64,000 bases of DNA from Acidobacteriota bacterium (GCA_965249865.1 CBDFMZ010000002.1:1483304-1547303); one strand, 5' to 3'; numbered from the stretch's first letter, positions 25,071 through 60,231 are shown. The notes: generated from the letters alone by a model not told the origin. Numbers and translations: made by a program.

Positions 25071-25374
25071 ACCCGACCTATAGTGAAGTATGGAAAGCCA
25101 AGCAGTCAATAGGGATTAGGCTGCATACTCACTTCTGCTGCCGATAGCACTCGGCATAAGTACGTCTGAGTGGAGCCAGGCAGTAATTTTCGATCAGACC
25201 TAGCAGTAAGTCTTTCCGACCCATCAGGGAGTCTTCGTGTCTTGGATTGAACGGGAAGGAGAGACGAACAATATCCGCTTTTTCTTCGCGCACATCAAGA
25301 GACACGAAGCGCCCCAGGCGGGGCTCAAAGGGAAGCAGATCTGTGTAGGTGAAGCGATCAAAATCGGGGTCAGT

Positions 25375-25719
25375 CTAGGGTTTCTCGTGGCGACTTCGCC
25401 AGTAGTGGTTTTTTAGTTTTTCCAAAAAGGAGTCGTAGTCAAACCCGGCAGACTTATTATTGACACTGGACTCAATATAGATTCGTTCATCCTTTGAAAC
25501 CGCACCGACACCATAAGTCACATCCAATTCTTTCTCGCGAGCGAACTTGATACGGTGATTCCCGAAACCATGAAATCGCTTCAGCTCAGCCTCTACGCCG
25601 AGCGCTAGACCGTCTTCTTCAGTCACATACTTTCCCTTCAAACGTTCATACCAGTCGTCGATAATCTCGGCTAGAACACGATCGAGTTGTTTTAGTTTTT
25701 CTTCCTGGCGACCGGTCAA
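25375..25719 (-). CDS. Hypothetical protein (114 aa), no recognised family
   Basis: A clean ORF divergent from the VWA gene. It is charged and Lys/Glu-rich, and no motif was recognised. Confidence 0.35.
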   Translation of the reverse strand: MTGRQEEKLKQLDRVLAEIIDDWYERLKGKYVTEEDGLALGVEAELKRFHGFGNHRIKFAREKELDVTYGVGAVSKDERIYIESSVNNKSAGFDYDSFLEKLKNHYWRSRHEKP

Positions 25720-25775
25720 GACACTCCATTGTCCGGAATTGTTACCGAAAAGTAAATAAGGTACATTACAAGAAG

Positions 25776-26669
25776 ATGCGGAAAGCTCACAGCATGTTGG
25801 TCTGTATACTCGTCACGCTGATTGTTTGCGCATTTCAACGGGAACCGCAAATACGTGTCGAGGTTGAGGCGGTTAACGTTCTCGTTACGGTCACAGACAA
25901 AAAGGGTCGATTTGTGATTGATCTACCTGAAAATCGTTTCCAGGTCTACGAAGAGGGGATTCAGCAGAGTATCACCAATTTCAGCTACCAGACCAATCTT
26001 CCACTCCTGATTGCTTTACTGATCGATACCAGTTCAAGTGTACGGATGAAGCTGGATTTCGAAAAGACAGCAGCAACTTACTTCGTTTATTCTGTAATGA
26101 GACCTCGAGATCAGGCGCTCCTAGTGGAGTTTGATCATGGTGTTTCACTACTTTACGACTTCACCGACCGACCGGGCGCCATCGCAAAGGAGATCCAGAC
26201 CCTCCGGGCTGGTGGAGGCACCGCCCTTTTGGACGCTATCTATGTGGTGTGCCGAGAAAAACTCACTGACCGTTCCGGTAGAAAAACCATGGTGGTTGTC
26301 TCCGATGGAGTCGATCTCAACAGCGAGCACTCGCGGAAAGAAGTTCTGGAAATAGCGCATCGTTCTGGAGTCACCATCTACGCCATAGGAACGACGCGTT
26401 TTGGAGCCGATCAAGAACATGAGGGTGAAGAAATGCTGGAAAAGCTAGCCGTGGAAAGCGGTGGGCAAGTTTTTTTCCCCTACTCGGCTGAACGACTGGC
26501 CGAGGCCTTCGATCAAATCAGTGAAGAACTTCGCAGTCAGTACAGCCTCACCTATATCCCCACCGATGCGGCCAAAGATGGCCGGTTTCGAAAGATTAAG
26601 GTCAAAATCATCAAGGACCGAGAACTCGACATTCGCCACCGCGCAGGTTACTACGCTCCGACAGGATAG
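25776..26669 (+). CDS. Secreted von Willebrand factor A (VWA) domain protein
   Basis: Signal peptide plus the MIDAS motif LIDTSSSV (DxSxS), then downstream T...D metal-coordination positions. The 297-aa length is typical of Acidobacteria/PVC VWA proteins. Confidence 0.75.
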   Translation: MRKAHSMLVCILVTLIVCAFQREPQIRVEVEAVNVLVTVTDKKGRFVIDLPENRFQVYEEGIQQSITNFSYQTNLPLLIALLIDTSSSVRMKLDFEKTAATYFVYSVMRPRDQALLVEFDHGVSLLYDFTDRPGAIAKEIQTLRAGGGTALLDAIYVVCREKLTDRSGRKTMVVVSDGVDLNSEHSRKEVLEIAHRSGVTIYAIGTTRFGADQEHEGEEMLEKLAVESGGQVFFPYSAERLAEAFDQISEELRSQYSLTYIPTDAAKDGRFRKIKVKIIKDRELDIRHRAGYYAPTG

Positions 26670-26915
26670 TGAGTGTGTTGATGAACCCATCGTCAAGTCG
26701 AGCAGCCCGTGGTAAAAGTCGTGTGGAGTAGCACGCCAGGGATCCGCGGTCTCTAGCTAGCTTGACCGAAATTCGTCGGAGACAATTCCAATGGACAGAT
26801 CAGATTCTATTCCTTTCGGATCGTGTTTCTCGTGGCCAAAGCCAGCTCCTGGAGGCTTCCAAACAGTCCTACTGAGCAGCGGACGGGCGGCGTGCAATTA
26901 CCCCAGTTTCTCCGG

Positions 26916-27587
26916 TCAGGGATGCTCTAAAATGGTCAGTATTTCTGAAAGGTTACGGAGGATCCACCGGGGAGATACTAGAGGTGATACCCGTTGATCC
27001 ACCTCAACCAACCAAGCAACTTGGAAACCGGCTATACCTCCCCCATAGACATCAGCCACAGGATCATCCCCAACATATAAACAACGCTGAAGATCAAAAC
27101 CACTTTTTTCTCTTACGACTTGGAAGAATCTTTCGCTGGGCTTACACCAACCCACCTCCTCGGAAATAAAGATCTGTGTGAAGCACTCCTCCAACCCAAA
27201 CTTTTGCAGAGCTTGGCGAGCCGTTGCCGCATGATCGAAGTTCGACACCAAGATCAGAGGATGTCCCCGAAGTTTTCCCAGTACCTTTTTTTTTCCCGGC
27301 GGACAATACATGATCCGGGACATCTCGTTCATATGCACTTCAACCATCAAAGTGGCTGCATCATTATCTCCTAGACCCACTAGTTCTTGCAGAATCTCAA
27401 AGCGTCTGAAGGATGAGAATTCACGCTGCTCTTGCTGCCGCATCTTTCCAACAATCTGTCGACTTTTCAAGAATTCTTCAAGAAATCGTTCATAGGAAAA
27501 TACCAGCCTAAACTCTTGCTTCAACCGACGGTAAACTTCGACGCTGGTGGTGCGAAAGTGTTGGTCTTCGAACTCAACTTTCGGCAA
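26916..27587 (-). CDS. HAD-superfamily hydrolase (subfamily IA-like); N-terminal motif I not in the called frame
   Basis: The C-terminal part LYVGDDPVADVYGGGIAGFQVAWL matches HAD motif IV. The track ORF starts with TTG and lacks DxDGT. An upstream out-of-frame piece, MKFEAIFFD, sits behind an A8 homopolymer, which suggests a frameshift. Confidence 0.55.
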   Translation of the reverse strand: MPKVEFEDQHFRTTSVEVYRRLKQEFRLVFSYERFLEEFLKSRQIVGKMRQQEQREFSSFRRFEILQELVGLGDNDAATLMVEVHMNEMSRIMYCPPGKKKVLGKLRGHPLILVSNFDHAATARQALQKFGLEECFTQIFISEEVGWCKPSERFFQVVREKSGFDLQRCLYVGDDPVADVYGGGIAGFQVAWLVEVDQRVSPLVSPRWILRNLSEILTILEHP

Positions 27588-28022
27588 CAGGGAATAATCA
27601 AAGTGAAGGAGTGTGTTAAAAAGATCTGATCAAAAAAAATGGCTTCAAATTTCATTCTATTTTTCCGGTTTTTGATCGGTTAAAATAGCATTTTTCACAA
27701 CGATTTACTACCGAGGCGCAAGAGTTACAGCAAAGGAAAATTGCGTGGAGTCACTCTCCAGGGGTCTGGAGTCGATACTTAGACATCGGCGATTTCGGGG
27801 AGAGACAACATCCAGTGGTACAATCCTGCCCTTCTGGTTGAAGCTGCTCAGGACAAGTTCGGACCTGCGACCAAGCTGATGAACTTTGACAACCGCTTTT
27901 GAAACGACTACATTCGTGAAAGAAAAAAATGTAATGTTGCCTCAAGAGTTTGTACTACAAGTGAAGTCGACCTAACGACCAAAAAGTTTTAACAAAACTG
28001 CAAAGGATGGGAGAGACATCAC

Positions 28023-28328
28023 ATGACTGAGTTTGTTTCTGTTGCGAAAACTGGCGACATCTCTGCTGGCCAAGGGCGAGTTGTAGAGGTGAATGGGAAA
28101 CCCATTGCACTTTTCAACGTAGATGGAACCTATTTCGCCATCGATAATATCTGCCTGCATCAAGGTGGCCCTCTTGGGGAGGGGGCATTAGATGGCAAGG
28201 TCGTTACCTGCCCTTGGCATGCCTGGACTTACGATGTCAGCACAGGAGAGTGCACCTTTAATTCCTCAATCCGCGTGGACCGATTCGAGGTCAAAGTCGA
28301 AAATGGGGAAGTCAAAGTAACAATATAA
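28023..28328 (+). CDS. Rieske [2Fe-2S] ferredoxin (NirD / dioxygenase ferredoxin-like small protein)
   Basis: CLHQGGPL (CxH) and CPWHAW (CxxH) are the two Rieske ligand boxes, in a 101-aa protein. Confidence 0.85.
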   Translation: MTEFVSVAKTGDISAGQGRVVEVNGKPIALFNVDGTYFAIDNICLHQGGPLGEGALDGKVVTCPWHAWTYDVSTGECTFNSSIRVDRFEVKVENGEVKVTI

Positions 28329-28336
28329 CCCTGCGA

Positions 28337-28903
28337 TCAGGCGCCCACCGCTTTCTCTGTCTTGGTCTGGAATTGTGGCTCTAATTCCACTTCCAGTGAA
28401 AGCACGAAGCGATTGATCATGTTGAAAAAACCAATCAGGATAATCATCTCAACCACCTGATCGGAAGTGAAATGGTTGTCAAGCTGGGTCCAATACTCCA
28501 ATTGTGGAATCTCATCGGGCTCAAAGGTGATGAGTTTAGTGAGTTTGAGAACTTCCTTTTCGTAGTAAGTGAAAAGATCACTCTGGGCGTAATCGTCCAT
28601 AGCTTGAATCTGTTCCTGTGTCCAGCCGGCCTTTTTGGCTAGTTCCGTGTGGTGAGAGACTGTGTATTTACATTTTTCTAGCTTGCAGGTCTTTAAGATG
28701 ACCAACTGACGAATCTTTTCACTCAGATTGGTATCGCCCAGGAGCCTGCCATAAAGATCCGCCACAGTCTGCAAGAAATTGTCGCTGTGAGCCAGGGTCT
28801 TGATGAAATTGGGAATAAACCCAGTTCGATCCTCCACTTCGGCGTAGACCGCCTTTATCTTTTCGTTGGCTGCATCCAACTGCACAGGTAAGTATCTTGG
28901 CAT
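28337..28903 (-). CDS. Carboxymuconolactone-decarboxylase / AhpD-like family protein
   Basis: The ~188-aa product contains CKLEKCKYTVSHH, a CxxxxC...H AhpD-core-like motif. The start was placed at the internal Met (MPRYLPVQ). Confidence 0.5.
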   Translation of the reverse strand: MPRYLPVQLDAANEKIKAVYAEVEDRTGFIPNFIKTLAHSDNFLQTVADLYGRLLGDTNLSEKIRQLVILKTCKLEKCKYTVSHHTELAKKAGWTQEQIQAMDDYAQSDLFTYYEKEVLKLTKLITFEPDEIPQLEYWTQLDNHFTSDQVVEMIILIGFFNMINRFVLSLEVELEPQFQTKTEKAVGA

Positions 28904-29008
28904 CACTCCCTCCGAGATTTCGAGTCTTAACCCCGTCAACTTCTAAATACAGTGTAAAGCTATCAACCGATTGCCATGTGTTTCATTCGATGTATTTCCT
29001 GGATGTGA

Positions 29009-29920
29009 TCAACGGTCAATGGTTTGTGGGAAGCGCTCTTTCTTGAGCGCCGCAAACTGTTGGTCAGCAAGATAACTGGAGCGTACCAGTGGACCGCTCT
29101 CGACATGATTAAAACCGATCTGCTCGCCAACCTGCTTCCAGTAGCGAAACTCATCCGGGTGATAATAGCGCTCTACGGGTAGGTTCCAGCTTTTCGGACG
29201 CAGGTACTGGCCCACGGTCAAGATACTCACCCTTCGATTGACCAGGTCGCGCATCACTTGTTGGATCTCTGCGGCCGTTTCTCCCAAGCCGACCATCATT
29301 CCTGTCTTGGTCGTGATTTCCGGGGCTAGTTTCTTAGAACACTCCAGAACCCACAGAGAGATCTTATAGTCCCCACCTCCCCGCGCCTTGGGATAAAGTC
29401 GAGGAACAGTCTCGATGTTATGATTGAGGATCTCAGGTTTGGCATCGAGCACTGTTTCTAAGGCTTTTCGGCAGCCCTTAAAGTCAGGGATCAGGACCTC
29501 AACGATACACTCAGGACTCCTTTTGCGGATTTCGCGGATGGTTGCCGCAAAAATTCCAGCACCTCCATCCTCCAGATCATCCCGGTCCACCGAAGTGATC
29601 ACGGCATGTTTTAGACCCATCACCTCGACTGCCTGCGCTACACGCTTCGGCTCCTGCCTATCCAACTGGAAAGGTTTTCCCTTACTAACCGCACAGTAAC
29701 GGCATCCTCGGGTACAGATATCGCCTAGGATCATAAACGTCGCTACCCCATGGCCCCAACATTCCCCCATATTGGGACACATCGCTTCCTCGCACACCGT
29801 GTGTAAACTTAAACCGCCGATGATTTTTTTAAGTGCGTGTACCTGCTCTCCGAAGGGAGCCCGAACTCTCAACCAGGAAGGATGTTTGCCCGGGAGTCTG
29901 CTTTTCGTTTGATCCTGCAT
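29009..29920 (-). CDS. lipA: Lipoyl synthase
   Basis: CEEAMCPNMGECW is the auxiliary-cluster Cys triad and CTRGCRYCAV is the radical-SAM CX3CX2C. These are the diagnostic LipA motifs. Length is 303 aa. Confidence 0.9.
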   Translation of the reverse strand: MQDQTKSRLPGKHPSWLRVRAPFGEQVHALKKIIGGLSLHTVCEEAMCPNMGECWGHGVATFMILGDICTRGCRYCAVSKGKPFQLDRQEPKRVAQAVEVMGLKHAVITSVDRDDLEDGGAGIFAATIREIRKRSPECIVEVLIPDFKGCRKALETVLDAKPEILNHNIETVPRLYPKARGGGDYKISLWVLECSKKLAPEITTKTGMMVGLGETAAEIQQVMRDLVNRRVSILTVGQYLRPKSWNLPVERYYHPDEFRYWKQVGEQIGFNHVESGPLVRSSYLADQQFAALKKERFPQTIDR

Positions 29921-29951
29921 CTGCGCTTAACAATAGCAAATTTGGGCCTAA

Positions 29952-30284
29952 TTGCACAGAGCTGCTAGTGTCCCCCTGACCAAGAGGCTGACCAAAGTCA
30001 CCTCCGCTCCGCAGAACACCAGCACCTGTTTGTTACAATGTGAGCCGCCAACAGATGATCAGGTTGGTGTTTGTCTGGTCCTGGTTTTCACCGGTTGGTG
30101 GCGACAGGACACCAGGATGTCCATTGCCGACAATTGCGCTGGACAACGCGATCCAAATACGTTTTGGGAGATTAGTTGCTCCTTATTTTGCCGAAATCAC
30201 GGCAGGAGGGGATGGTTACCTTCAGTCACTGGCTGGATCCTGGCCGAAAGAGTCCCACTCAAGATGTATTGTTCGTATACTTAA
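29952..30284 (+). CDS. Orphan small ORF (110 aa, Cys/Trp-rich) ending immediately at a strong intrinsic terminator; alternatively a non-coding RNA
   Basis: The ORF stop TAA at 30282-30284 abuts the hairpin at 30283-30317. There is no recognisable family and codon usage was not assessed. Confidence 0.25.
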   Translation: MHRAASVPLTKRLTKVTSAPQNTSTCLLQCEPPTDDQVGVCLVLVFTGWWRQDTRMSIADNCAGQRDPNTFWEISCSLFCRNHGRRGWLPSVTGWILAERVPLKMYCSYT

Positions 30285-30317
30285 AACTGCCCAAAGAGAT
30301 CGTACGAGGGCAGTTTT
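30283..30317. terminator. Palindromic intrinsic-terminator-like hairpin (bidirectional)
   Basis: AAAACTGCCC-(15 nt)-GGGCAGTTTT is a perfect 10-bp inverted repeat with a GC-rich core, flanked by A4/T4. Confidence 0.5.
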
Positions 30318-30676
30318 CGGTTAGATCTTCCTAGTGGTACTACTATTGCGGGATTTCCTCCATGTCGGGATCGCGCGAAAGGGTCACGTTCAAGTCATCT
30401 GATAAGCCATCACCGCCGCTTGACAGAGGGCTCTACACCCCTTACCTTGAGTGGGCCGGGCGATCAGAAAACGCCCTTATTACCCTGGAACTGCAGGCCA
30501 CAATCGGAGAGGGTGTGTAACAACATGACCAACCAGTACTTCCAAAACGTCCTGGTCGTGAAGTGGGAGAAGGTTGTCTCAAGTTGTTGCCCTGTCAACA
30601 TTGTTAACTGGATCATTACGACTCGGGATAGCACAATCCGAAAGCGCAAGAACATCTCCGTCAACCACCTAAGTTA

Positions 30677-31219
30677 ATGACCTTCTTTACCGCACAAACG
30701 GCCTTCTATTATATGGCGACGGCTAGCATCACGAGCGCTCTCTTAGCCGTGACGCGAAAGAATCCTGTCCATAGCATGCTTTGGGTGCTGGCCTTATTCC
30801 TGCACGTGGCAGGCATCTTCTTGTTGTTGGGCGCGGAGTTCCTGGCAGCGGTACAGGTCATTGTTTACGCAGGCGCCATTTTGGTTTTCTACCTCATCGT
30901 CCTGATGCTTCTCGACCTGCCGAGCGAGGAGGCTCGGCCCCGGTTCGGCGCCCATTGGCCGTTCGCCGCTGCCGGTGGACTGGGTCTGGTGATAGCCGGG
31001 GCCTGGATCGCCCAGATCGAGAAGCTCGACCCTGTTAGAACGGGAGCGGCGCCAGTTGCTGCAGGTATAGCATCGGAAGCTCCGCCTCCGGGCAGTCTAT
31101 CGCAGGTGGGCATGGCTCTCTTCGGCCCATTCGCCCTACCCTTTGAGATAACCTCACTGGTCCTCCTCGCCGCCATCGTAGGGGCGGTCGCGGTCGCAAG
31201 GAGGAGGGAACGATCATGA
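30677..31219 (+). CDS. nuoJ: NADH-quinone oxidoreductase subunit J
   Basis: A 180-aa membrane protein (...MLWVLALFLHVAGIFLLLGAEFLAAVQVIVYAGAILVFYLIV...) matching the ND6/NuoJ pattern, followed by nuoK with a 4-bp overlap. Confidence 0.8.
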   Translation: MTFFTAQTAFYYMATASITSALLAVTRKNPVHSMLWVLALFLHVAGIFLLLGAEFLAAVQVIVYAGAILVFYLIVLMLLDLPSEEARPRFGAHWPFAAAGGLGLVIAGAWIAQIEKLDPVRTGAAPVAAGIASEAPPPGSLSQVGMALFGPFALPFEITSLVLLAAIVGAVAVARRRERS

Positions 31220-31521
31220 TTGTTCCCCTGGGCGGGGTTCTGGTCTTGAGCGCCGTCCTCTTTGGGATCGGAGTATTCGGCTTTCTGGCCCGGCGCAACA
31301 TCATCCTGATGCTGGTCTCTGTTGAGATAATGCTCAATGCAGTGAACCTCAGCCTAGCCGGATTCAGCCAACACTTCGGTGACCAACGCGGCCAGGTCCT
31401 TGCACTCTTCGTGATTGCCGTTGCAGCTGCAGAGGCAGGAGTCGGTCTTGGTCTTGTGATTGCCTTGAACCGGAACAGGCCTGGTGCCGGCGTGGGTGAC
31501 CTGACCCAGCTCAAATGGTGA
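31216..31521 (+). CDS. nuoK: NADH-quinone oxidoreductase subunit K
   Basis: The 101-aa three-TM protein has the conserved membrane Glu (VEIMLNAVNL...AAAEAGVGL), the ND4L signature. Confidence 0.85.
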   Translation: MIVPLGGVLVLSAVLFGIGVFGFLARRNIILMLVSVEIMLNAVNLSLAGFSQHFGDQRGQVLALFVIAVAAAEAGVGLGLVIALNRNRPGAGVGDLTQLKW

Positions 31522-33006
31522 CTACGATGGAAACAAACGGCATCTTGGTTTCGCTCATGCCACTACTCACAGTACTGGTGCCGGCCGTGGGTGCACTCCT
31601 CATCGCTTTCACTGGGGAAAGGCGAGCCAATTTGAGAGAGTTCTGGTCCGTTGCTGCCGGTGTCCTGATGTTTGCCCTTGTAGTGGGCATGATCCTGGAG
31701 GTCCGGGCTGGCGACACGCCGGAATGTGTACTCTTCCGTATTCTCCCCGGAATTGAACTAGCGTTTCAGGTGGATACCTTTCGGCCTGCTCTTCGCCTCG
31801 GGGGCATCGCTACTATGGATCTTGACCTCGTTTTACTCGATCGGCTATATGCGTTCTCTTCAAGAGCACGCTCAAACCCGCTACTTTTCCTGCTTCGCTC
31901 TGGCTCTTTCTGCCACCGTGGGGGTGGCCTTCTCAGCCAATCTGTTCACCATGTTTCTGTTTTACGAGGCCTTGACCCTGGTTACCTACCCCCTGGTGGG
32001 CCACAAGCAGACGGCCGAAGCCAAGGCAGGCGCCCGCAAATACGTTATTTATCTACTGGGTGCTGCCAAGCTGTTCCTCCTGACCGCCATTATCCTGACC
32101 TACAATGTAACCGGAACCCTGGAGTTTCGCAAAGGCGGGATCCTGTCGGTTGAGCAGATCAGAGAACATCCTATCCTTCTCTATGTGATCTTCGCGCTGT
32201 TCCTTTTCGGATTCGCAAAGAACGCACTTATGCCGCTGCACAGCTGGCTGCCGGCAGCCATGGTGGCCCCCACCCCTGTGAGCGCCTTGCTACATGCCGT
32301 GGCCGTCGTGAAAACCGGAGTGTTCTGCACGCTGAGGGTCTTTCTATTTGTTTTCGGAACTGGCGCGATACACGATCTCGGCGCGGACCACTTGGCACTA
32401 GGAGCAGCCTCGGTCACGATCATTCTTGGGTCGCTCCTTGCGCTTGGGCAAGACAACCTCAAAGCCCGACTGGCTTTCTCCACCGTCAGTCAGCTCTCCT
32501 ATATCATCTTGGGAGCGGCGCTCTTGAACCAGAACGGGATGCTAGGCGGGATAGCCCATATCACCAACCATGCCGTGTCGAAGATTACCCTCTTCTTGTG
32601 CGCCGGCTCTATTTACGTATCATCACATAAGACCGAAATTAGCCAGATGTCTGGTCTTGCCAAGCGTATGCCGTGGACCATGGCTGCGTTTGCTCTTGCG
32701 TCCCTGAGCGTGGTGGGCATTCCTCCTACCTCCGGATTCGTCTCCAAGTGGTACCTGGTACTAGGTTCGGTAGAGCAACACAGCCTTACTTTTTTAGGGG
32801 TACTTCTAGTGAGCTCACTTCTCAACGCTGCGTACCTGGGACCGGTCGTGTATAAGGGATACTTCGAAGAGTCACCGCAGGCACAGGAAGAGGTCCGCGA
32901 GGTTCCCTGGATGGTTGTGCCCTTGACAATCAGCGGGGCCGCAAGCTTGCTCCTAGGCCTTTATCCGAACCCTGTACTGGAGCTAGCCGGGGGGGCTATA
33001 CCGTGA
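31515..33006 (+). CDS. Extra complex-I antiporter-like subunit, MrpD/NuoM-N-type (about 497 aa), with an apparent +1 frameshift near 31776-31795
   Basis: The N-terminus is in frame 0 (...ILPGIELAFQVD). The remainder is in the +1 frame (WIPFGLLFASGASLLWILTSFYSIGYM...HSWLPAAMVAPTPVSALLHAVAVVKTGVF...HITNHAVSKITLF...GFVSKWYL). All canonical antiporter residues are retained (TM5 Glu, TM7 Lys, HxxxHxxxK, TM12 Lys). There is no NuoL-type C-terminal helix. Confidence 0.65.
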
Positions 33007-33266
33007 TTTTTTTTCAAAAGTCCCTGGAAGATCCAGTCCGCTTGGCCCGGCTCAAATATTGGTTCTATATGGGCCTGGCGGCGGCGGCTCTAGCAGAAAT
33101 CGTTGTGCCGGTTGTCTTCCAGGCCGATCATCCCCACTTCTCGTTTGAGCGTTTCCCAGCTTGGGGATCGCTCTATGGATTGGTCTCCTGTCTCGCGATC
33201 GTAGTCGTGTCTAAATTGATCGGGAAGGTGTGGCTCACTCGCCGCGAAGACTATTATGACTCTTGA
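33003..33266 (+). CDS. Small two-TM membrane protein embedded in the nuo antiporter module (87 aa)
   Basis: A GTG start overlaps the stop of the preceding gene, and its own stop overlaps the nuoL start. Two hydrophobic helices (WFYMGLAAAALAEIVVPVVF; LYGLVSCLAIVVVSKLIG). No known Nuo subunit was recognised. Confidence 0.45.
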   Translation: MIFFQKSLEDPVRLARLKYWFYMGLAAAALAEIVVPVVFQADHPHFSFERFPAWGSLYGLVSCLAIVVVSKLIGKVWLTRREDYYDS

Positions 33267-35022
33267 GTGGATCCACCCAGGGCTTTTGCTGATCCTAGGC
33301 TCTTGGGGATTACCCTTCCTTCAAGGCCGTGCCAAACGGTTGGCTATGCTCCTCCTGCCTGCCGGGTCACTGGCTATCTGCCTCAGCATGACGCCAGGCA
33401 ACTATGGCGAGGTCAGTTTCCTCGGACAGGTTCTTGTGTTTGGTCGAGTGGACAAGTTAAGTCTAATCTTCTCCTATGTCTTCTCGATCATGACCTTTCT
33501 CGGCATGGTGTACGCCCTCCATGTGAAGGAGGATGCTCAGCACGTAACGGCACTGACCTATGCGGGGGCTGCACTCGGGGTGACGTTTGCTGGGGATCTC
33601 CTCTCCCTGTATGTGTTCTGGGAACTCCTGGCGATCTCATCGGTGCTTCTGATTTGGCAGTGCCGGAAACCGGCTGCGGTGGCAGCCGGTTTCCGCTACC
33701 TCCTGATTCACGTCTTTGGGGGGCTTATCCTCCTGGCAGGAATTATACTGCACTGGTCCCAAACCGGGTCGATCGCCTTCGTGGAAATGGGTCCTTTTGC
33801 CAGCGGGCCGGCCTGGGTTTTGATCCTGTTGGCCTTCCTGCTCAACGCCGCGGTACCGCCCCTTGGAGCATGGCTCCCGGATGCCTATCCGGAAGCTACG
33901 GTCACGGGCGCAGTCTTCATGACTGCTTTCACCACCAAGTCCGCAGTCTACGTCTTGATTCGGGGCTTCCCCGGATCCGAGCTTCTGGTCTGGCTGGGAG
34001 CCGCAATGGCCGTCTACGGTGTGGTATACGCTGTGTTGGAAAACGACGCGCGCCGTTTGCTAGCCTACCATATCATAAGCCAAGTTGGCTACATGGTCTG
34101 CGGAGTGGGAATCGGGACCGCACTGGCCCTAAACGGCGCTGCAGCCCACGCATTCGCGCACATCATCTACAAAGGTCTCCTCTTCATGGGAGCCGGCGCC
34201 GTCCAGGAGGTGACTGGACACAGAAAACTAAGTGATATGGGTGGGCTCTACAAGACCATGCCGATCACCCTCGGCCTCTATCTGGTAGGCGCCTTCGCCA
34301 TTTCAGCCGCGCCTTTCTTTAGTGGTTTCGTGAGCAAGTCCATGGTGGTCTCTGCCGCCGGTGATTCCCACCGAACGCTGGTTTTTCTCATGCTCACTCT
34401 AGCGTCTTCCGGAACGTTTCTTCACACGGGCCTTAAACTCCCATACTACATGTTCTTCGGCAAAGATTCAGGCCTACGCGGCCAGGAGCCACCTAGGAAC
34501 ATGCTTGTGGCTATGGGCTTGGCTGCAATTGTGTGCATAGGGATAGGGATCTTCCCTGGCCTACTTTACCGGTACCTTCCTCAGCCGGTCGACTACGCCC
34601 CATACACCTTGCAGCACATCACGGCCACCTTGGGAATGTTGGGCTTCACAGCCCTGGGTTTTTTCCTGCTGCTCAAACATCTCGACCCTGAGCCCAAGAT
34701 CAGCCTTGACACAGACTGGTTTTACCGCAAAGGTTTTTCGGCCGCCATAGGCCTAACCCAAAGCCCACTGAAACGTCTAGAGTCTAGCTTTGTGGGGGAG
34801 ATCTATGAGGCTGTCGTGCGGCGTCTCGTGTTAGGTGGTGCGGCTCTCATGCGCAGGTTTGACACTCACGTCGTTGATTCCACAGCGCTGGGCATAGGTC
34901 GATTGACCCAGGCCTTCGGTCAAATTTTGAAGACCACGGTAAGCGGCAACACCCAACACTACGGGTTAATCATGATTGCGGGTGTCTTATTGTTGCTCGT
35001 TCTAGCAGTACTTGCACTATGA
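33256..35022 (+). CDS. nuoL: NADH-quinone oxidoreductase subunit L (with C-terminal long-helix region), divergent core
   Basis: The product is 588 aa. LAYHIISQVGYM, AAAHAFAHIIYKGLLF (H..H..K) and GFVSKS (TM12 Lys) are NuoL-like. The C-terminus DTHVVDSTALGIGRL...NTQHYGLIMIAG matches the NuoL horizontal-helix/TM16 region. The TM7 KSAQ Lys position reads LLNAAVPPLGAWLPDA (Lys to Asn), and GPTPVSALIH is replaced by EATVTGAVFM. Confidence 0.7.
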   Translation: MTLEWIHPGLLLILGSWGLPFLQGRAKRLAMLLLPAGSLAICLSMTPGNYGEVSFLGQVLVFGRVDKLSLIFSYVFSIMTFLGMVYALHVKEDAQHVTALTYAGAALGVTFAGDLLSLYVFWELLAISSVLLIWQCRKPAAVAAGFRYLLIHVFGGLILLAGIILHWSQTGSIAFVEMGPFASGPAWVLILLAFLLNAAVPPLGAWLPDAYPEATVTGAVFMTAFTTKSAVYVLIRGFPGSELLVWLGAAMAVYGVVYAVLENDARRLLAYHIISQVGYMVCGVGIGTALALNGAAAHAFAHIIYKGLLFMGAGAVQEVTGHRKLSDMGGLYKTMPITLGLYLVGAFAISAAPFFSGFVSKSMVVSAAGDSHRTLVFLMLTLASSGTFLHTGLKLPYYMFFGKDSGLRGQEPPRNMLVAMGLAAIVCIGIGIFPGLLYRYLPQPVDYAPYTLQHITATLGMLGFTALGFFLLLKHLDPEPKISLDTDWFYRKGFSAAIGLTQSPLKRLESSFVGEIYEAVVRRLVLGGAALMRRFDTHVVDSTALGIGRLTQAFGQILKTTVSGNTQHYGLIMIAGVLLLLVLAVLAL

Positions 35023-36482
35023 CAGCTTCCCCGATTTTGACAGTCATAACCTTTCTGCCTCTCGTCGGCGCGATCCTTATACTGCTCTTTCGCAGCGAGC
35101 AGCTATCGCGCTGGATTGCACTGGCCACCACGCTGGCCACCCTGGCTGTCTCGACCCCGCTCTACTGGAGCTTCGACAAGACCTCAAGCACCCTGCAATT
35201 CGTCGATTCTGCGGACTGGATCCCGACGTGGAACATCTCCTATCGAATGGGTGTGGACGGACTCAGCCTCCCATTTATCTTCCTCGCAGCGCTCCTAAGC
35301 CTCCTGTGTGTTGGTGCCTCATGGACCGCGGTCAGCACGAAAGTACGAGAGTTTTACGGGGTGCTCCTATTTGCCGAAACCGCAATGATCGGGCTCTTCG
35401 CTGCTGCAAATCTTTTTCTTTTCTTTATCTTCTGGGAACTCATGATCATCCCCATCTTGATCCTCATCGGTGTCTGGGGCGGCTCAGAACGAGTCTACGC
35501 CGCAGTCAAGTTTTTGCTTTTCACGCTGGCCGGCAGTGTGTTGATGTTGGTGGGCATAATCACCCTCTACCACACTTGCGGTACTCTGGACTTCAAAGCC
35601 CTTGCCAGATTTGGGCTTCAGCCCGAGCTACAGGCCTGGCTCTTCCTAGCATTCCTGACTGCCTTCGCCGTCAAGGTACCCATGTTCCCAGTGCATACAT
35701 GGCTCCCGGACGCTCACACCCAGGCTCCTACCGCGGGGAGCGTGATCTTGGCCGGGATCCTTCTGAAGATGGGGGCCTATGGATTCCTACGGATTTCACT
35801 GCCCATACTTCCCGACGCCGTGCAGCTCTTCCTCTATCCAATGCTCGTCGTCTCTGCAGTTGCCATCGTCTATGGCGCCTACGTGACCTTAGCCCAAACG
35901 GACCTCAAGCGCCTCATTGCTTATTCGAGTGTCAGCCACATGGGCTTTGTCACCCTGGGTATTTTTACCCTCAACCGCAACGGTGTCGAAGGCGCGATCC
36001 TGCAAATGATCAACCACGGAATCATCAGCGCCGCTCTTTTCTTGTGTGTCGGCATAATCTACGAGCGCACCCACACACTGGATATTAAGGAATACGGTGG
36101 AGTTGCCAAAAACGCTCCTGCTTATTCCACTTTCTTGGCTCTCTTCTGCCTGGCCGCTGCTGGATTTCCGGGTTTGAACTCTTTCGTAGGGGAGTTCCTC
36201 ATCATCGGAGGGGCGTTCGAAACCACGGCCTGGCTTGGGGCAATGGCCGTCTGGGGAGTTGCCTTGGGAACAGCTTACTTGGTTTGGCTCTACTACCGGG
36301 TCGTCATGGGAGAGATGAACCCAGGCCTTGAAGGGCTCAAACTCGAGCTTAACATCCGTGAGGTGGCGACTTTGGCCCCTCTGGCCTTCCTCGCCTTGTA
36401 TCTGGGTCTCTACCCTGAGTGTGTGCTTTCCTATCTTCGCGTTCCCGTCGCCGAACTCTTGGCTGCTGGAGCCACGCCATGA
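35019..36482 (+). CDS. nuoM: NADH-quinone oxidoreductase subunit M
   Basis: HTWLPDAHTQAPTAGSVILAGILLKMGAYGF is the diagnostic NuoM/ND4 motif. The 487-aa product has ATGA overlaps on both sides. Confidence 0.9.
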   Translation: MTASPILTVITFLPLVGAILILLFRSEQLSRWIALATTLATLAVSTPLYWSFDKTSSTLQFVDSADWIPTWNISYRMGVDGLSLPFIFLAALLSLLCVGASWTAVSTKVREFYGVLLFAETAMIGLFAAANLFLFFIFWELMIIPILILIGVWGGSERVYAAVKFLLFTLAGSVLMLVGIITLYHTCGTLDFKALARFGLQPELQAWLFLAFLTAFAVKVPMFPVHTWLPDAHTQAPTAGSVILAGILLKMGAYGFLRISLPILPDAVQLFLYPMLVVSAVAIVYGAYVTLAQTDLKRLIAYSSVSHMGFVTLGIFTLNRNGVEGAILQMINHGIISAALFLCVGIIYERTHTLDIKEYGGVAKNAPAYSTFLALFCLAAAGFPGLNSFVGEFLIIGGAFETTAWLGAMAVWGVALGTAYLVWLYYRVVMGEMNPGLEGLKLELNIREVATLAPLAFLALYLGLYPECVLSYLRVPVAELLAAGATP

Positions 36483-37888
36483 ACCTAGGTGACCTAACCC
36501 TAATCTTACCGGAGCTGATTCTGGTTACTGCCGCATTGGCGTTCATCCTTGCGACGCGCCGAATCCGAAGCGCACCTGTATTCACGGTAGGGGCGGTTTT
36601 AGCTGGGCTGGCAGCTGCCTCAAGCTCGGTTTGGCTCCTGCCAGGGACACCCAAGACGGGGTTCGGAGACATGATCATCTTGGACGGCTACTCCCAATTC
36701 TTCAAGGTTCTCATCGCGTTTGCCCTAGTCCTCGCTGTACTTCTGTCGGTAAACCGGTACGACGCAGGACATGTTCGGTCCGGTGAGTACCATGCTTTGC
36801 TCCTCTTGGCCACGACGGGAATGATGTTCGCGGCCTCAGCCCTCGATTTCCTGACCCTATACTTGAACCTCGAGCTCATGACTCTTTGTTCGTACATCTT
36901 AGTTGGGATCACGGTCGAGAAGTCGGTATCAAACGAGGCTGCGGTCAAGTACCTCCTCCTGGGTTCCTTCGCTTCGGCTCTGCTCCTCTACGGGATCGCC
37001 CTGACTTACGGAGTTACGGGTACTACGAACTTTACAGGTATTGCCTCGGCTCTCTCAGCGCACGGATTAGGAAATAACCACATCCTTTTGGCGGCGGTTG
37101 GTCTGTTGGTCGCGGGGCTTGCATTTAAGATTGCGGCGGTCCCGTTTCATGCCTGGGCGCCGGACGCTTATCAGGGCGCGAGCGCTCCGGTCGCAGCCTT
37201 TTTGGCAACCGCCTTCAAGGCCGCTGGCTTTGCCGCACTGGGACGGGTCTGCCTGGTCGCATTGCCTACTGCCCATACTTTACCCGTCGTTCTGATGGGC
37301 CTCGCCACGCTCTCCCTAGTCGTGGGAAGTGTCATTGCCCTGTCCCAAACGAACATGAAACGCTTATTGGCATATTCCTCGATTGCACATGCCGGCTACG
37401 CCCTTCTGGGCTTGATTTCCGGGACACCCGAAGGAGCTTCGGCTACCATGACCTATGTCTTCCTATATGTCTTCATGACGTTGGGGGCCTTTGGCGTTGT
37501 CATCGCACTGGGTGAACGAGGGGAAAGCTTGGACGGTTATCGTGGTATAGCCGCGCAACGGCCAGGAACAGCCGCTCTCATGCTACTTTTCCTCCTTTCC
37601 CTGACCGGAATCCCGCCCACAGCCGGATTCGCGGCCAAGTTTCTCGTGATTCTCAGCGTGATCCGCGCAGACCATTTGGTGTTGGCAGTCCTGGCCGTAG
37701 TCTGTAGTGTGATCTCGGCCTTCGTCTACCTGCGTGTGGCGGTTCTCATGTACATGAAGGAACCACAGGAACCCGAACCCTCGGGCTACCCGCTGGCGAT
37801 CTCTGCCGTGCTTGCTGTGGCGGCTCTGGTCACGGTGATCGGGGGAATTTTCCCAGATAACCTCACCTTTTGGGCGGTGGCCCCGTGA
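36479..37888 (+). CDS. nuoN: NADH-quinone oxidoreductase subunit N
   Basis: HAWAPDAYQGASAPVAAFLATAFKAAGFAAL is the diagnostic NuoN/ND2 motif. The start was set at ATG 36479 (MNLGDLTLILPEL), which overlaps the nuoM stop. Confidence 0.85.
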   Translation: MNLGDLTLILPELILVTAALAFILATRRIRSAPVFTVGAVLAGLAAASSSVWLLPGTPKTGFGDMIILDGYSQFFKVLIAFALVLAVLLSVNRYDAGHVRSGEYHALLLLATTGMMFAASALDFLTLYLNLELMTLCSYILVGITVEKSVSNEAAVKYLLLGSFASALLLYGIALTYGVTGTTNFTGIASALSAHGLGNNHILLAAVGLLVAGLAFKIAAVPFHAWAPDAYQGASAPVAAFLATAFKAAGFAALGRVCLVALPTAHTLPVVLMGLATLSLVVGSVIALSQTNMKRLLAYSSIAHAGYALLGLISGTPEGASATMTYVFLYVFMTLGAFGVVIALGERGESLDGYRGIAAQRPGTAALMLLFLLSLTGIPPTAGFAAKFLVILSVIRADHLVLAVLAVVCSVISAFVYLRVAVLMYMKEPQEPEPSGYPLAISAVLAVAALVTVIGGIFPDNLTFWAVAP

Positions 37889-37895
37889 TGAGAAC

Positions 37896-37922
37896 GAGCA
37901 CCGGGTTGCGGCGATGGTGCTC
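37896..37922 (+). terminator. Terminator-like hairpin after nuoN
   Basis: GAGCACC-(13 nt)-GGTGCTC is a 7-bp perfect stem 8 nt after the nuoN stop, followed by TCTTCC, a weak U-tract. Confidence 0.35.
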
Positions 37923-37928
37923 TTCCGT

Positions 37929-37958
37929 ATAATGCGTATAGTGTGAAATAGGTATAAT
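37929..37958 (+). promoter_or_regulatory. Tandem TATAAT -10-like boxes upstream of nuoA
   Basis: cgTATAATgcg (37929-37934) and ggTATAATgtg (37953-37958) sit 21-45 bp upstream of the nuoA ATG at 37979. No clean -35 was identified. Confidence 0.35.
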
Positions 37959-37978
37959 GTGAAAACGATGGTCCAGCG

Positions 37979-38332
37979 ATGAGCGAGTACATCGGTATAG
38001 CAGTCTGTTTTGCCCTAGCCGGAGGCATCACGACAGCTATGGTGTTACTGGCTTCCACCTTGGGTGAGAAGAAGCCCTCACCCGTGAAGTCAGAAACGTT
38101 CGAGTGCGGGAACAAACCCTTCTCTCACCCGAGCGGGAAGTTGGCAATCAAGTTCTATTTGACTGCGATTCTGTTCATCTTATTCGATGTTGAGCTCATC
38201 TTCCTATATCCGTGGGCCGTTATCTACCGCAAGATTGGGATGGTGGGTCTAGTAGAGATGGGGGTCTTTCTGAGCATTTTGATGGTAGGCTACATCTACG
38301 CTTGGGACAACGGTGCCCTGGAGTGGCAGTGA
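37979..38332 (+). CDS. nuoA: NADH-quinone oxidoreductase subunit A
   Basis: The 117-aa three-TM protein (...FECGNKPF...KFYLTAILFILFDVELIFLYPWA...) matches the NuoA/ND3 consensus. Confidence 0.9.
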   Translation: MSEYIGIAVCFALAGGITTAMVLLASTLGEKKPSPVKSETFECGNKPFSHPSGKLAIKFYLTAILFILFDVELIFLYPWAVIYRKIGMVGLVEMGVFLSILMVGYIYAWDNGALEWQ

Positions 38333-38333
38333 T

Positions 38334-38834
38334 ATGCTGAACGATTCGTTCTTAACCAGTCGCCTAGATAAGGCCCTTGGCTGGGCCCGAAAGTTTTCCA
38401 TCTTCCAGTACCCCTTTGTTACCGCCTGCTGCGGGATGGAGTATATGGCAACAGCCTGTTCTCACTATGACGTCGACCGCTTTGGAGCGGGCTTTCCCCG
38501 GTTTTCTCCGCGCCAAGCCGACGTGCTTTTCGTGGTGGGCACGATCAGTCACAAGATGGCACCCGCCCTCAAACGCATCCACGACCAGATGGCCGAGCCG
38601 AAATGGGTCGTTGCTTTTGGAGTCTGCACCTGTACGGGCGGCTTCTATGACAACTATGCAACCGTGATGGGTATTGACACGATCATGCCGGTGGATATCT
38701 ACATTCCGGGTTGCCCACCGAGGCCGGAGTCCGTTCTGGACGGGCTAATGAAGCTCCAGGAAAAGATTCAAAACCAACACACCACAGGCCAACGATCCGC
38801 ACCTGAGCCTCGCCCGGACTCCTTCAAACAATGA
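38334..38834 (+). CDS. nuoB: NADH-quinone oxidoreductase subunit B
   Basis: ACCGMEYM, GVCTCTGG and PGCPPRPE are the N2 Fe-S cluster Cys motifs of NuoB. The start was placed at ATG 38334 (MLNDSF...). Confidence 0.9.
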   Translation: MLNDSFLTSRLDKALGWARKFSIFQYPFVTACCGMEYMATACSHYDVDRFGAGFPRFSPRQADVLFVVGTISHKMAPALKRIHDQMAEPKWVVAFGVCTCTGGFYDNYATVMGIDTIMPVDIYIPGCPPRPESVLDGLMKLQEKIQNQHTTGQRSAPEPRPDSFKQ

Positions 38835-39412
38835 ATAACCCTTCTTTGATTGAGTCTGTCCGTGAACGCTTCCCCGGTGCGGTGTCGACTTCTCACGCCT
38901 ACCGTGGCGACGAAACAGTCGTTCTGCGCCCGGAGTTTCTCCTCGAGGTCGCACGGTTCCTCAAAGAAGATCCGTCCCTGCGGATGAATTTCCTCATGGA
39001 CTTGACCGCTCTGGATTACTCCACCTTTGGCAAAAGTCCTGCGCCGGCTTTCTTTGCTTCCTCGGGTATAACGCTGCGTCCCTTATCCGAGATCCCGGAT
39101 GCGGAACCGTGGCCTGGTCCGCCGGAACAAACACGCTTCGCCGTGGTGTACCACTTCTATTCTCTGAAGCACAAACACCGCCTCAGGCTGGTGGTCTTGG
39201 TGGAAGAGACCGAGCCTGAGCTGGATTCCCTGACCGCATTGTGGGCTGGTGCAAACTGGCTCGAGCGGGAGGTTTGGGACATGTTTGGTATCCGATTCCG
39301 AGGACATCCCGATTTGAAACGAATTCTGATGTACGAAGAGTTCGAAGGACACGCTCTGCGTAAGGACTACCCCGTGAACAAGCGGCAACCCCTGATCGGT
39401 CCGACCAACTGA
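38831..39412 (+). CDS. nuoC: NADH-quinone oxidoreductase subunit C
   Basis: ...WAGANWLEREVWDMFGIRFRGHPDLKRILMYEEFEGHALRKDYPV is the conserved NuoC/30-kDa C-terminal block. Confidence 0.85.
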   Translation: MNNPSLIESVRERFPGAVSTSHAYRGDETVVLRPEFLLEVARFLKEDPSLRMNFLMDLTALDYSTFGKSPAPAFFASSGITLRPLSEIPDAEPWPGPPEQTRFAVVYHFYSLKHKHRLRLVVLVEETEPELDSLTALWAGANWLEREVWDMFGIRFRGHPDLKRILMYEEFEGHALRKDYPVNKRQPLIGPTN

Positions 39413-39421
39413 TGGTAATCC

Positions 39422-39697
39422 GTGGGTCGGTATGTCTTTGGTCTATGGTTCTCCGATGACAACCAGTTCCTCGTGCTTTACTCGGAATCTCATTCGTCGT
39501 CGAGGACAGAAACGATGAGCTTGGACCTTGTCCAGGACTGGAATACGGCAACAATTGCAATTACAACGACCACCATTGAGGGTCTGTGGGTTGTTGGGTT
39601 GCCGGATATTGCCAATGTACGTGGCCCTAAGAAATATCCTCTTCTGAACACCGAGCATCTTTTTGGAGCGATAGTCCAAAGATCCATTAAGCCCTAG
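39422..39697 (+). CDS. Small hypothetical ORF (91 aa) in the atypical 325-bp nuoC-nuoD spacer
   Basis: The ORF fills most of the spacer and no family was recognised. It may be non-coding. Confidence 0.2.
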   Translation: MGRYVFGLWFSDDNQFLVLYSESHSSSRTETMSLDLVQDWNTATIAITTTTIEGLWVVGLPDIANVRGPKKYPLLNTEHLFGAIVQRSIKP

Positions 39698-39737
39698 ACC
39701 CATGAAACCATGCACCCACACACCCACCTCCCCCCCC

Positions 39738-41099
39738 ATGGAGACATCCCAGACGACTTTGAGCAACACCCCGGATCTCGAGACGCGCGATATGATGCTC
39801 AACATTGGCCCAGCCCACCCGGCTATGCACGGCATCATTCGGATCGTGGCCGAGCTCGATGGAGAGCAAATCCGAAGCGCCGAAGTAGAAATCGGCTACC
39901 TTCACCGTGGCTTTGAAAAAATGGCGGAAGTGGTGGATTACAATGGTGTAGTACCCTACACTGACCGGCTCAACTACGTCTCCCCGCTCATAAACAACAT
40001 GGGATACTGCATGACCGTGGAAAAACTGCTCGGGATCTCGGTCCCCGAGCGCTGCCATTACATACGGATCATCGTCTCGGAAATTTCCCGGATCACGGAC
40101 CACCTCACCTGCGTGGGGGCGACCGCCATGGAGTTGGGGGCCTTTAGCGTCTTTCTCTACCTAATCAAGGCCCGCGAGTATCTCTGGGATCTTGTGGAGA
40201 TGGTGACCGGAGCACGTTTGACAGTCAGCTACTGCCGCGTGGGCGGAGTGAAGGCGGACCTTCCCAAAGATTTTTCCGAGGCTTGCCACAAGGCATTCGA
40301 GGAGACACGCAAGGTTCTCGGCGAGGCGGATGGACTCCTCACTCGCAACCGTATCTTCACAGACCGAATGAAAGGAACAGGCGTGATCTCCGTTGAAGAC
40401 GCCATCTCCTATGGAATCACAGGCCCCTTTCTTCGTGCCAGCGGCGCGGACTACGACGTACGTAAGGACTGCCCATATGCCGTCTACGAGCGGCTGCCTT
40501 TCGATGTTCCGGTGGGAACCCATGGGGACAACATGGATCGTTACCTCGTACGTATGGAGGAGATGGAACAGTCTATGCGCATCGTGGAGTCAGCGCTGCG
40601 AGACATGCCGAGCGGTCCGATTCTTACAAATCCTGAGACAGGACGGCCCATCCCAGCCGCGGATATGGTGGACCTGGCCAAGGTAGGTAACATAGAGACC
40701 ATAACAGGTGGATGTGCTGTGGTCGGTCCAACTCTCAGTGGCTCTGGTCGCGCCCAGCATCCCTCGATAGCTGCTGATGAAAAAAGGGCCTTTCTCCCTC
40801 CCAAAGAGGACACCTACGGCAACATCGAAGGACTCATGAACCATTTCAAGCTGGTCATGTTCGGCCACGGGGTTCGACCGCCCAAGGGAGAGGTCTACTT
40901 TCCTGTGGAAGGGGCGAACGGAGAGCTCGGGTTTTACGTGGTGAGCGACGGAGCAGGACGTCCCTACCGAGTTCGGGTTCGTCCGCCCTGTTTCGCCATC
41001 ATGTCGGCCCTATCCAAGCTCCTGGTCGGAGATATGATGGCCGATATGATCCCCACCTTCGGATCGGTCAATATGATCGGAGGAGAGCTCGATCGATGA
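39738..41099 (+). CDS. nuoD: NADH-quinone oxidoreductase subunit D
   Basis: MMLNIGPAHPAMHGIIRIVAELDGE...RLNYVSP is the NuoD/49-kDa N-terminal motif. The start is ambiguous (39702 or 39738), and a C8 homopolymer sits just upstream. Confidence 0.85.
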   Translation: METSQTTLSNTPDLETRDMMLNIGPAHPAMHGIIRIVAELDGEQIRSAEVEIGYLHRGFEKMAEVVDYNGVVPYTDRLNYVSPLINNMGYCMTVEKLLGISVPERCHYIRIIVSEISRITDHLTCVGATAMELGAFSVFLYLIKAREYLWDLVEMVTGARLTVSYCRVGGVKADLPKDFSEACHKAFEETRKVLGEADGLLTRNRIFTDRMKGTGVISVEDAISYGITGPFLRASGADYDVRKDCPYAVYERLPFDVPVGTHGDNMDRYLVRMEEMEQSMRIVESALRDMPSGPILTNPETGRPIPAADMVDLAKVGNIETITGGCAVVGPTLSGSGRAQHPSIAADEKRAFLPPKEDTYGNIEGLMNHFKLVMFGHGVRPPKGEVYFPVEGANGELGFYVVSDGAGRPYRVRVRPPCFAIMSALSKLLVGDMMADMIPTFGSVNMIGGELDR

Positions 41100-41160
41100 G
41101 TATTTTAGATCAGTGAGTCTCACAAATTAAACCCATGAACCTATAAACCAACAAAGAATA

Positions 41161-49600: not shown

Positions 49601-49793
49601 CGAACTGCTAGCTCTGTTGAAGAAACAAACCGCCCGTTTCGCCCAGGGATGGGTCAGCCCCTGGGACATCGCCGGTTTTGAAGAAAACCAAAAACCACAA
49701 CTCCCCGCTGATACGACTCCTGTCCAGTTAGCCGCCTGGACTGCGGTCTCTCGAGTTTTATTGAATCTAGATGAAACCATCACGAAGGAATGA
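46614..49793 (+). CDS. PSCyt1 (CxxCH cytochrome-c-like) / DUF1549 / DUF1553 domain protein
   Basis: Signal peptide, then the PSCyt1 heme-binding motif [11 protein letters not shown]. The 1059-aa length and the trailing DUF1501 partner gene match the planctomycete-type PSCyt/DUF1549/DUF1553 architecture. Confidence 0.75.
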
Positions 49794-49803
49794 GGGCGGA
49801 GCT

Positions 49804-56973: not shown

Positions 56974-56977
56974 GGCG

Positions 56978-60218: not shown

Positions 60219-60231
60219 GCCGGCAAGGATG
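60219..60231. repeat. 13-bp direct repeat GCCGGCAAGGATG (left copy) flanking the IS remnant
   Basis: The sequence is identical to 60754-60766. It encodes the duplicated HPCR peptide of the split epimerase. Confidence 0.75.

Follow-up and report, generated by a model that had tools for sequence, protein, structure and literature searches.

What kind of complex I carries four antiporter-like subunits, one of which, apparently in the place of NuoL, has asparagine where a lysine of transmembrane helix 7 (TM7) is expected? The question is raised by a 64,000-nucleotide stretch of an Acidobacteriota genome (GCA_965249865.1 CBDFMZ010000002.1:1483304-1547303), referred to here as the window, in which a single tightly packed operon on the plus strand (30677-46314) holds the complete complex I gene set in the order nuoJ-K-X-s-L2-M-N-A-B-C-D-EF-G-H-I. 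X and L2 denote two MrpD-like antiporter subunits, and s an 87-residue membrane protein encoded between them. A sequence-only reading of this DNA had placed four parts after nuoK, ending in canonical nuoM and nuoN, and our profile matches agree with that layout. It had also counted four antiporter-like subunits, and tblastn with Escherichia coli NuoL, NuoM and NuoN identified exactly these four genes in the 64-kb window. The same reading likened the arrangement, without equating it, to 2M-type complex I variants, unaware that it had been described. By gene content and order, the locus belongs with the respiratory complex I operons known as green complex I, and the arrangement is not new.

In green complex I, described from rhizobia in 2016, NuoL is replaced by two MrpD-like subunits (PMC9040806 and PMC7415380); PMC7415380 further reports a peculiar gene order and up-regulation in symbiosis, with induction under symbiotic or micro-oxic conditions known from Rhizobium and Sinorhizobium only. 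Searching plasmids with L2 by tblastn returned 154 records, mostly from Sinorhizobium, Rhizobium and Ensifer, at around 59% identity. On a Sinorhizobium meliloti plasmid (locus L001), nuoJ and nuoK are followed by genes annotated as a "monovalent cation/H+ antiporter subunit D family protein" of 487 residues, a "hypothetical protein" of 84 residues and a "Na(+)/H(+) antiporter subunit D" of 586 residues, and then by nuoM, N, A, B, C, D, E, F and G. We favour, with a probability of roughly 0.75, the reading that the window encodes a complete green-type NADH:quinone oxidoreductase in which an X-s-L2 module replaces NuoL, with L2 beside NuoM, X distal, s near the contact between them and four antiporter-like units in total.

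This gene order is widespread. A pattern scan derived from the s alignment identified relatives in 250 species-representative genomes, and 80 loci were kept: 45 from Acidobacteriota, 8 from Planctomycetota, 21 from Alphaproteobacteria, 2 from Betaproteobacteria, one each from Gemmatimonadota, Nitrospirota and Actinomycetota, and one unclassified. The sequence-only reading had proposed looking in related genomes for the order K-X-small-L-M-N, and it recurs: 67 of the 80 loci have all of J-K-X-s-L2-M-N, and X, s and L2 are consecutive in 76. The order was partial in the other 13, most of them short contigs that break off at one end; in one of the 13 no s was detected. X and L2 lie within the nuo operon in all 80 loci. 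The closest operon, in an Acidobacteriota metagenome-assembled genome (L039), is 87-90% identical, with 90% for X and 87% for L2. Other gene orders also occur. Locus L085 (1-4908) reads NuoN-X-s-L2 and continues into unrelated housekeeping genes, and L088 (1-4385) has a third MrpD-like gene followed by X-s-L2; that the three genes stay together in these settings indicates that the triad is a conserved unit. In L090 (40-3368) the L2 homologue has only 529 residues, loses its match to the family profile after position 505 of 584 and may lack the lateral helix.

Family models distinguish X and L2 from the canonical subunits. X, reconstructed as a 496-residue protein (see below), scored 644.6 bits against NF006236 ("putative monovalent cation/H+ antiporter subunit D"), just below the cut-off of 663, and its L085 orthologue scored 765.5 bits. 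On the NuoL models TIGR01974 and NF005141, X reached 205.6 bits (cut-off 407.5) and 215 bits (cut-off 556), respectively. It is nevertheless the window's best match to E. coli NuoL, at 130 bits compared with 85.5 for L2, and it ends 85 residues past the lysine of TM12. L2 scored 738.9 bits against NF009310 ("Na(+)/H(+) antiporter subunit D"), above the cut-off of 564 and over profile positions 3-582 of 584, and fell below the same two NuoL cut-offs with 142.3 bits on TIGR01974 and 164.8 bits on NF005141. The alignment of L2 with TIGR01974 is collinear to profile position 628 of 630, indicating that L2 keeps the NuoL-type C-terminus (TM15, lateral helix and TM16), and this protein also aligns with NdhF residues 577-654. 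After the TM12 lysine L2 has 227 residues, which is also the family median, versus 214 in E. coli NuoL. A predicted monomer model of L2, with a low predicted local distance difference test score (pLDDT) of 55.7, places helices at residues 453-473, 487-562 and 567-587. The top Foldseek matches to this model were all L-type chains (NdhF, MrpA and NuoL), which supports a general L-type fold for the modelled protein and nothing finer. The closest solved chains by sequence, at around 20-25% identity, were MbhH, MbsH and MrpD for X (about 140 bits) and NdhF, MrpD and MbsH' for L2 (117-131 bits).

Four antiporter-like genes within one nuo operon could also mean that X is the lineage's second NuoM, as in 2M-type complex I. 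On the NuoM model TIGR01972, however, X scored 207.2 bits, below the cut-off of 263.8, whereas the operon's NuoM scored 587.9, and X is only 31% identical to that NuoM. In neighbour-joining trees of X, L2, NuoM and NuoN, a kind of phylogeny that the sequence-only reading had itself suggested, each family formed one clade of its own, and X and L2 were nested neither in NuoM or NuoN nor with E. coli NuoL. The lateral-helix insertion is likewise absent from L2, given the lengths past the TM12 lysine. On the NuoM-model score, the tree and the length of the lateral-helix region we rejected a 2M-type arrangement, which we regard as close to impossible; the sequence-only reading had already judged the locus to be not identical to that type. 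The same lineages were grouped together in the four trees, and the operon thus evolves as a unit.

We aligned 79 orthologues of X and 77 of L2 with E. coli NuoL, NuoM and NuoN, and give positions in E. coli NuoL numbering. In X, the glutamate of TM5 (E144), the lysine of TM7 (K229) and the histidine of TM8 (H254) are all invariant. L2 has the same invariant TM5 glutamate, but its TM7 position is invariably asparagine and its TM8 position threonine or serine. Invariant in both proteins are a TM8 lysine of the NuoM K265 type, the H334, H338 and K342 residues of the TM11 HxxxHxxxK motif and the TM12 lysine (K399). The NuoL-specific aspartates are found in neither: D178 is alanine or serine in X and glycine in L2 (77/77), and D400 is tryptophan in X and serine in L2. 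Where GPTPVSALIH would be expected, L2 reads EATVTGAVFM. The TM7-TM8 segment of L2 (FLLNAAVPPLGAWLPDAYPEATVTGAVFMTAFTTKSAVY) hardly differs between rhizobia and Acidobacteria. The sequence-only reading had called the TM5 glutamate, TM7 lysine, HxxxHxxxK motif and TM12 lysine of X and, in L2, the asparagine at K229, the EATVTGAVFM replacement, the C-terminal region, the HxxxHxxxK motif and the TM12 lysine; all of these calls hold, and the alignments add the TM8 histidine and lysine of X. Its caveat that X might be a NuoM1 of a known 2M arrangement, with the lysine-to-asparagine change in NuoL common in the clade, divides in two: X is not a NuoM, whereas the substitution proved to be universal (77/77).

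The suggestion that L2 is a NuoL with a degenerate channel did not survive this comparison. Compared with the proteins of the window, those of the surveyed loci had a median identity of 78% for X, 75% for L2, 78% for NuoM, 67% for NuoN and 65% for s. L2 is thus conserved about as strongly as NuoM, pointing to purifying selection of similar strength, and both its asparagine, in orthologues from seven phyla, and its central-axis residues are invariant. Judged by this conservation, L2 is specialised rather than degenerate, and the TM7 asparagine is a fixed design feature. The corresponding lysine of NuoL has been described as universally conserved and functionally critical (PMC4938563). As L2 has lost both this lysine and the NuoL-specific aspartate, the net charge of its Glu/Asp/Lys site would be the same as that of NuoL. 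The TM12 glutamate of the neighbouring NuoM is kept in 76 of 76 orthologues. The invariant asparagine of L2 and the s family may not have been described before.

The small subunit s matches no Pfam or NCBIfam model. A word-indexed search returned 512 homologues, of which the top 120 are all 86-91 residues long and 66-98% identical to it, and an exhaustive profile search gathered 597 clusters at 50% identity. Among the best 150 of these 597 clusters, nearly all proteins have 43-134 residues, a few 154-179 and one, a partial match, 282; no fusion of s to X, L2 or another large protein was found among them. Across 136 diverse representatives, 80-95% keep D/E32 in the middle of TM1, His43, Glu/Asp49, Pro52, Gly59, Cys63, Lys71, Gly74 and a C-terminal (R/K)(R/K)EDYYD motif, and in distant members the gene still lies between genes for proteins of around 490 and around 580-600 residues, both with a Proton_antipo_M domain. 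From the number and spread of these homologues, s is a real and widespread family, in line with the conservation that the sequence-only reading had made a test of its proposal. The translational coupling of s on both sides also stands, with a GTGA overlap between X and s and an 11-nt overlap between s and L2; L2 and nuoM overlap by ATGA. AlphaFold2 places helices at residues 11-39 and 54-86 of s (pLDDT 66.7), and from the placing of its charged residues both ends would be cytoplasmic. A relationship to NuoK was considered and rejected, as the profiles of s and of the operon's NuoK family matched with a probability of 0.5%. A sequence search of the PDB with s returned only chance matches to transmembrane helices of alphavirus E2 (E 0.34).

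Together with the gene order, these features suggest how the membrane arm might be built. X is a 14-helix MrpD-like subunit with the full set of proton-path residues. L2 would occupy the NuoL position beside NuoM, because its lateral-helix and C-terminal region is of canonical length. An insertion of 26 residues in the lateral helix is what lets MrpD2 of 'Ca. Manganitrophus' reach across an added NuoM (PMC9040806); by implication the helix extends along NuoM and NuoN and not over MrpD1, the green complex I counterpart of X. Not being covered by the L2 lateral helix, X would sit at the distal tip, on the distal face of L2. Gene order X-s-L2-M-N would then be the reverse of physical order N-M-L2-X, just as L-M-N reverses the physical order in canonical loci. 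The small subunit, encoded between X and L2 and translationally coupled to both, would lie close to or at the interface of the two. Having four antiporter-like units rather than three, the enzyme could transfer as many as five ions per NADH, following a suggestion in PMC9040806; equivalently, reverse running would need less proton-motive force per step.

Several points weigh against this proposal. A sequence search of the PDB found no close homologue of L2 or s, the monomer models of both are of low confidence, and X is frameshifted in this window. L2, without a TM7 lysine, may not pump in the usual way, in which case the stoichiometry could stay at four. Transfer of five protons per NADH is in any case thermodynamically tight at high proton-motive force or with low-potential quinones.

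The doubt about L2 can be taken further, to a NuoL divided over two proteins, in which L2 would serve as a scaffold or transmission subunit, providing the lateral helix and passing on the conformational or electrostatic signal with no ion release, X would pump and the stoichiometry would remain four. L2 lacks a lysine described as universal (PMC4938563) and has the NuoL-type C-terminus, while X is the better match to the E. coli NuoL core and has the NuoL/MrpA-type TM8 histidine, all as such a division would have it. However, the TM5 glutamate, TM8 lysine, HxxxHxxxK motif and TM12 lysine of L2 are kept in 77 of 77 orthologues, which would be needless in a pure scaffold, and the accompanying loss of Asp178 at unchanged net charge suggests a re-engineered rather than a dead site. 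These invariant residues argue against a pure scaffold without settling the matter, and we consider a divided NuoL unlikely, if still a serious competitor. A different role for the L2 site is hinted at by the NCBI names of both families, Na+/H+ antiporter subunit D: the module, being Mrp-derived, could move Na+ or exchange Na+ for H+, giving a sodium-coupled or pH-homeostatic complex I. Near the TM12 glutamate of NuoM, the site would hold two carboxylates and an asparagine and no lysine, and could in principle bind a cation. Yet such family names are annotation transfers rather than tests, MrpD is generally regarded as a proton path, and none of MrpA, B, C, E, F and G is encoded in the operon; we think sodium coupling quite improbable. 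Within the favoured green-type reading, X-s-L2 may further be a self-contained two-pump cassette, in which s would provide charged residues (D/E32 and Lys71) in trans at the X-L2 contact, replacing the TM5-Glu/TM7-Lys switch lost by L2. This last proposal, which draws on the conservation pattern and on gene adjacency, is speculative, and we would bet against it more firmly than against the divided NuoL though less so than against sodium coupling.

The frameshift in X raises the separate question of whether the complex still works in this genome. X is split over two frames, with open reading frames (ORFs) at 31515..32153 (212 residues) and 31822..33006 (394 residues). Three-frame translation follows the protein out of frame 0 (…ELAFQVDTF) and into frame +1 (FGLLFASGASLLWILTSFYSIGYM…) close to 31782, and skipping one base there restores the 496-residue product; the sequence-only reading, which had described a single gene of about 497 residues, had silently read through the shift. 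A metagenome contig (L002) is 99.4% identical to positions 25013-41266 of the window (16.3 kb) and has the same genes, with an intact X of 492 residues. Relative to it, the window has exactly one extra C, at 31782, and this is the only single-base indel across the 16.3-kb alignment. X is full-length (477-502 residues) in most of the 80 surveyed loci and visibly split in none of them. Because L002 is unshifted and no surveyed locus is visibly split, we ruled out a programmed frameshift. In another metagenome contig (L087, 138-1659) the X homologue is also found in two ORFs, of 228 and 262 residues, so frameshifts in this gene recur in assemblies. Either the extra C of the window was introduced in base-calling or assembly, or X was inactivated very recently by a real mutation. 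In the latter case, the operon would be a decaying remnant in this genome, its complex non-functional or working without X. The extra C relative to so close a relative fits such decay, as does a HAD-hydrolase gene in the same 16 kb that is frameshifted by a 5-nt tandem duplication, unlike a base-calling error; elsewhere in the window there are a truncated ABC ATPase and a truncated epimerase beside an insertion-sequence transposase. The remaining operon genes, however, are intact and 99-100% identical to those of L002, a single-base insertion is the commonest assembly error, and the split in L087 indicates that such splits arise in assemblies. We put decay of this copy at somewhat short of an even chance, and continue to read the locus as a green-type operon.

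The remaining genes of the operon are listed with X, s and L2 below.

Table 1. Positions of the complex I genes in the window, with the evidence for each assignment.
Feature	Position	Strand	Evidence or remark
nuoJ	30677..31219	+	matches NCBIfam NuoJ models and Pfam Oxidored_q3 (1.3e-37); opens the operon both here and in S. meliloti
nuoK	31216..31521	+	NCBIfam NF004320, 105.6 bits (cut-off 57); Pfam Oxidored_q2 match
X, first MrpD-like antiporter subunit (green complex I 'MrpD1'), frameshifted	31515..33006	+	alternative start ATG at 31527
Extra C shifting the frame of X	31782..31782	+	alignment with locus L002
s, 87-residue two-helix membrane protein	33003..33266	+	small conserved family, no Pfam or NCBIfam model
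L2, 588-residue MrpD-like subunit (green complex I 'MrpD2') with NuoL-type C-terminus	33256..35022	+	NF009310
nuoM, canonical	35019..36482	+	TIGR01972, 587.9 bits
nuoN, canonical	36479..37888	+	TIGR01770, 405.4 bits; start set at the ATGA overlap, in agreement with the gene call in L002 (469-residue product)
nuoA	37979-38332	+	Pfam Oxidored_q4
nuoB	38313-38834	+	Pfam Oxidored_q6
nuoC	38831-39412	+	Pfam Complex1_30kDa
nuoD	39702-41099	+	Pfam Complex1_49kDa
nuoE-F, fused	41161-42957	+	one 598-residue protein with Pfam 2Fe-2S_thioredx, Complex1_51K and NADH_4Fe-4S
nuoG	42945-44618	+	NuoG Pfam domains; short, 557 residues
nuoH	44600-45694	+	Pfam NADHdh
nuoI	45541-46314 (longest ORF)	+	Fer4 dicluster match

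The spacer between nuoC and nuoD (39413-39701) measures 290 bp; in the majority of related operons the gap is 0-44 bp, and in several it is 68-437 bp. L002 matches the spacer at 99% identity and the Acidobacteriota genome L039 at 79% over 188 nt; the spacer has no Rfam match and contains a weakly conserved ORF of 91 codons. Rfam and tRNA scans of the whole window gave no matches. Directly 3' of nuoI (46614-51249) are genes for a 1059-residue PSCyt1/PSCyt2/PSD1 protein and a 492-residue DUF1501 protein, a pair typical of Planctomycetota and some Acidobacteriota.

Three minus-strand regions elsewhere in the window hold damaged genes. The HAD-family hydrolase gene (26916-27660) is frameshifted after codon 9 by the 5-nt tandem duplication (27623-27627), which leaves its catalytic N-terminal motif out of frame, and compared with L002 it also has a 12-nt in-frame deletion at around 27401. 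Within 55568-57075, the ABC-transporter ATPase ORF (56485-57075) stops after position 91 of 137 of its Pfam profile, with no signature motif or Walker B in any frame and its C-terminal half missing. It runs into an ORF that joins solute-binding and permease domains, and looks like a deletion or gene remnant. At 59656-60721, an IS240/IS6-type DDE transposase (60182-60721) adjoins an epimerase fragment (59656-60243) that covers just the central part of its Pfam profile and was apparently truncated by the insertion sequence.

The variant is thus not confined to rhizobia, and Acidobacteriota and Planctomycetota of soil and sediment carry it widely. Its subunit in the NuoL position always has asparagine where every characterised antiporter-like subunit has the TM7 lysine, and an unannotated small subunit accompanies the MrpD-like pair. 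A structure of the variant, or its H+/e- ratio, would bear on how charge relays between antiporter-like subunits drive pumping and on whether stoichiometry is tuned. Should s act in trans, adjacent pump modules would be coupled by a novel mechanism, and the variant would put the ion-pair relay model of complex I to a natural test.

Among known systems, the green complex I of S. meliloti is the nearest. The window has the same gene order, small gene included, and its proteins are orthologous, with identities of 59% for L2, 56% for X and 43% for s. In the trees the proteins from rhizobia branch within the X and L2 clades, and in both operons the place of nuoL, after nuoK and before nuoM, is taken by two MrpD-like genes. 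Rhizobia additionally possess a canonical nuo operon with a true nuoL. The host there is a rhizobium, whereas that of the window is an acidobacterium; nuoE and nuoF are separate and NuoG has 853 residues there, compared with the fused E-F and the 557-residue NuoG of the window. In the window, unlike the S. meliloti locus, nuoH and nuoI follow on the same strand, and X is frameshifted in the window only.

Complex_I_3 of 'Candidatus Manganitrophaceae' (PMC9040806) has the same MrpD-like pair in place of NuoL; it differs in a second NuoM and in the 26-residue lateral-helix insertion of its MrpD2, whereas the window has one NuoM and no insertion. The 2M complex I of Nitrospira and others (Chadwick et al. 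2018, ISME J 12:2668, cited in PMC9040806, which sets this type against green complex I) also has a fourth antiporter-like subunit encoded in a complex I operon, but its extra subunit is a NuoM paralogue and its NuoL lateral helix is extended, neither of which holds for the window. With the Mrp antiporter the locus shares the MrpD families and not the operon: mrpABCDEFG is absent, and the genes sit among nuo genes. The pairs MrpA/MrpD of Mrp and MbsH/MbsH' of the Pyrococcus MBS complex (7qru, 6z16 and 6u8y) likewise combine one subunit that has a lateral helix with one that does not. A search of the PDB found no counterpart of s in these or other solved structures, and MrpD, MbsH' and NdhF keep the TM7 lysine in our alignments, whereas L2 does not. 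With canonical NuoL, finally, L2 shares the C-terminal TM15, lateral helix and TM16 that X lacks, while the TM5 glutamate and TM7 lysine pair of NuoL (E144/K229) is present in X and has its lysine replaced by asparagine in L2.

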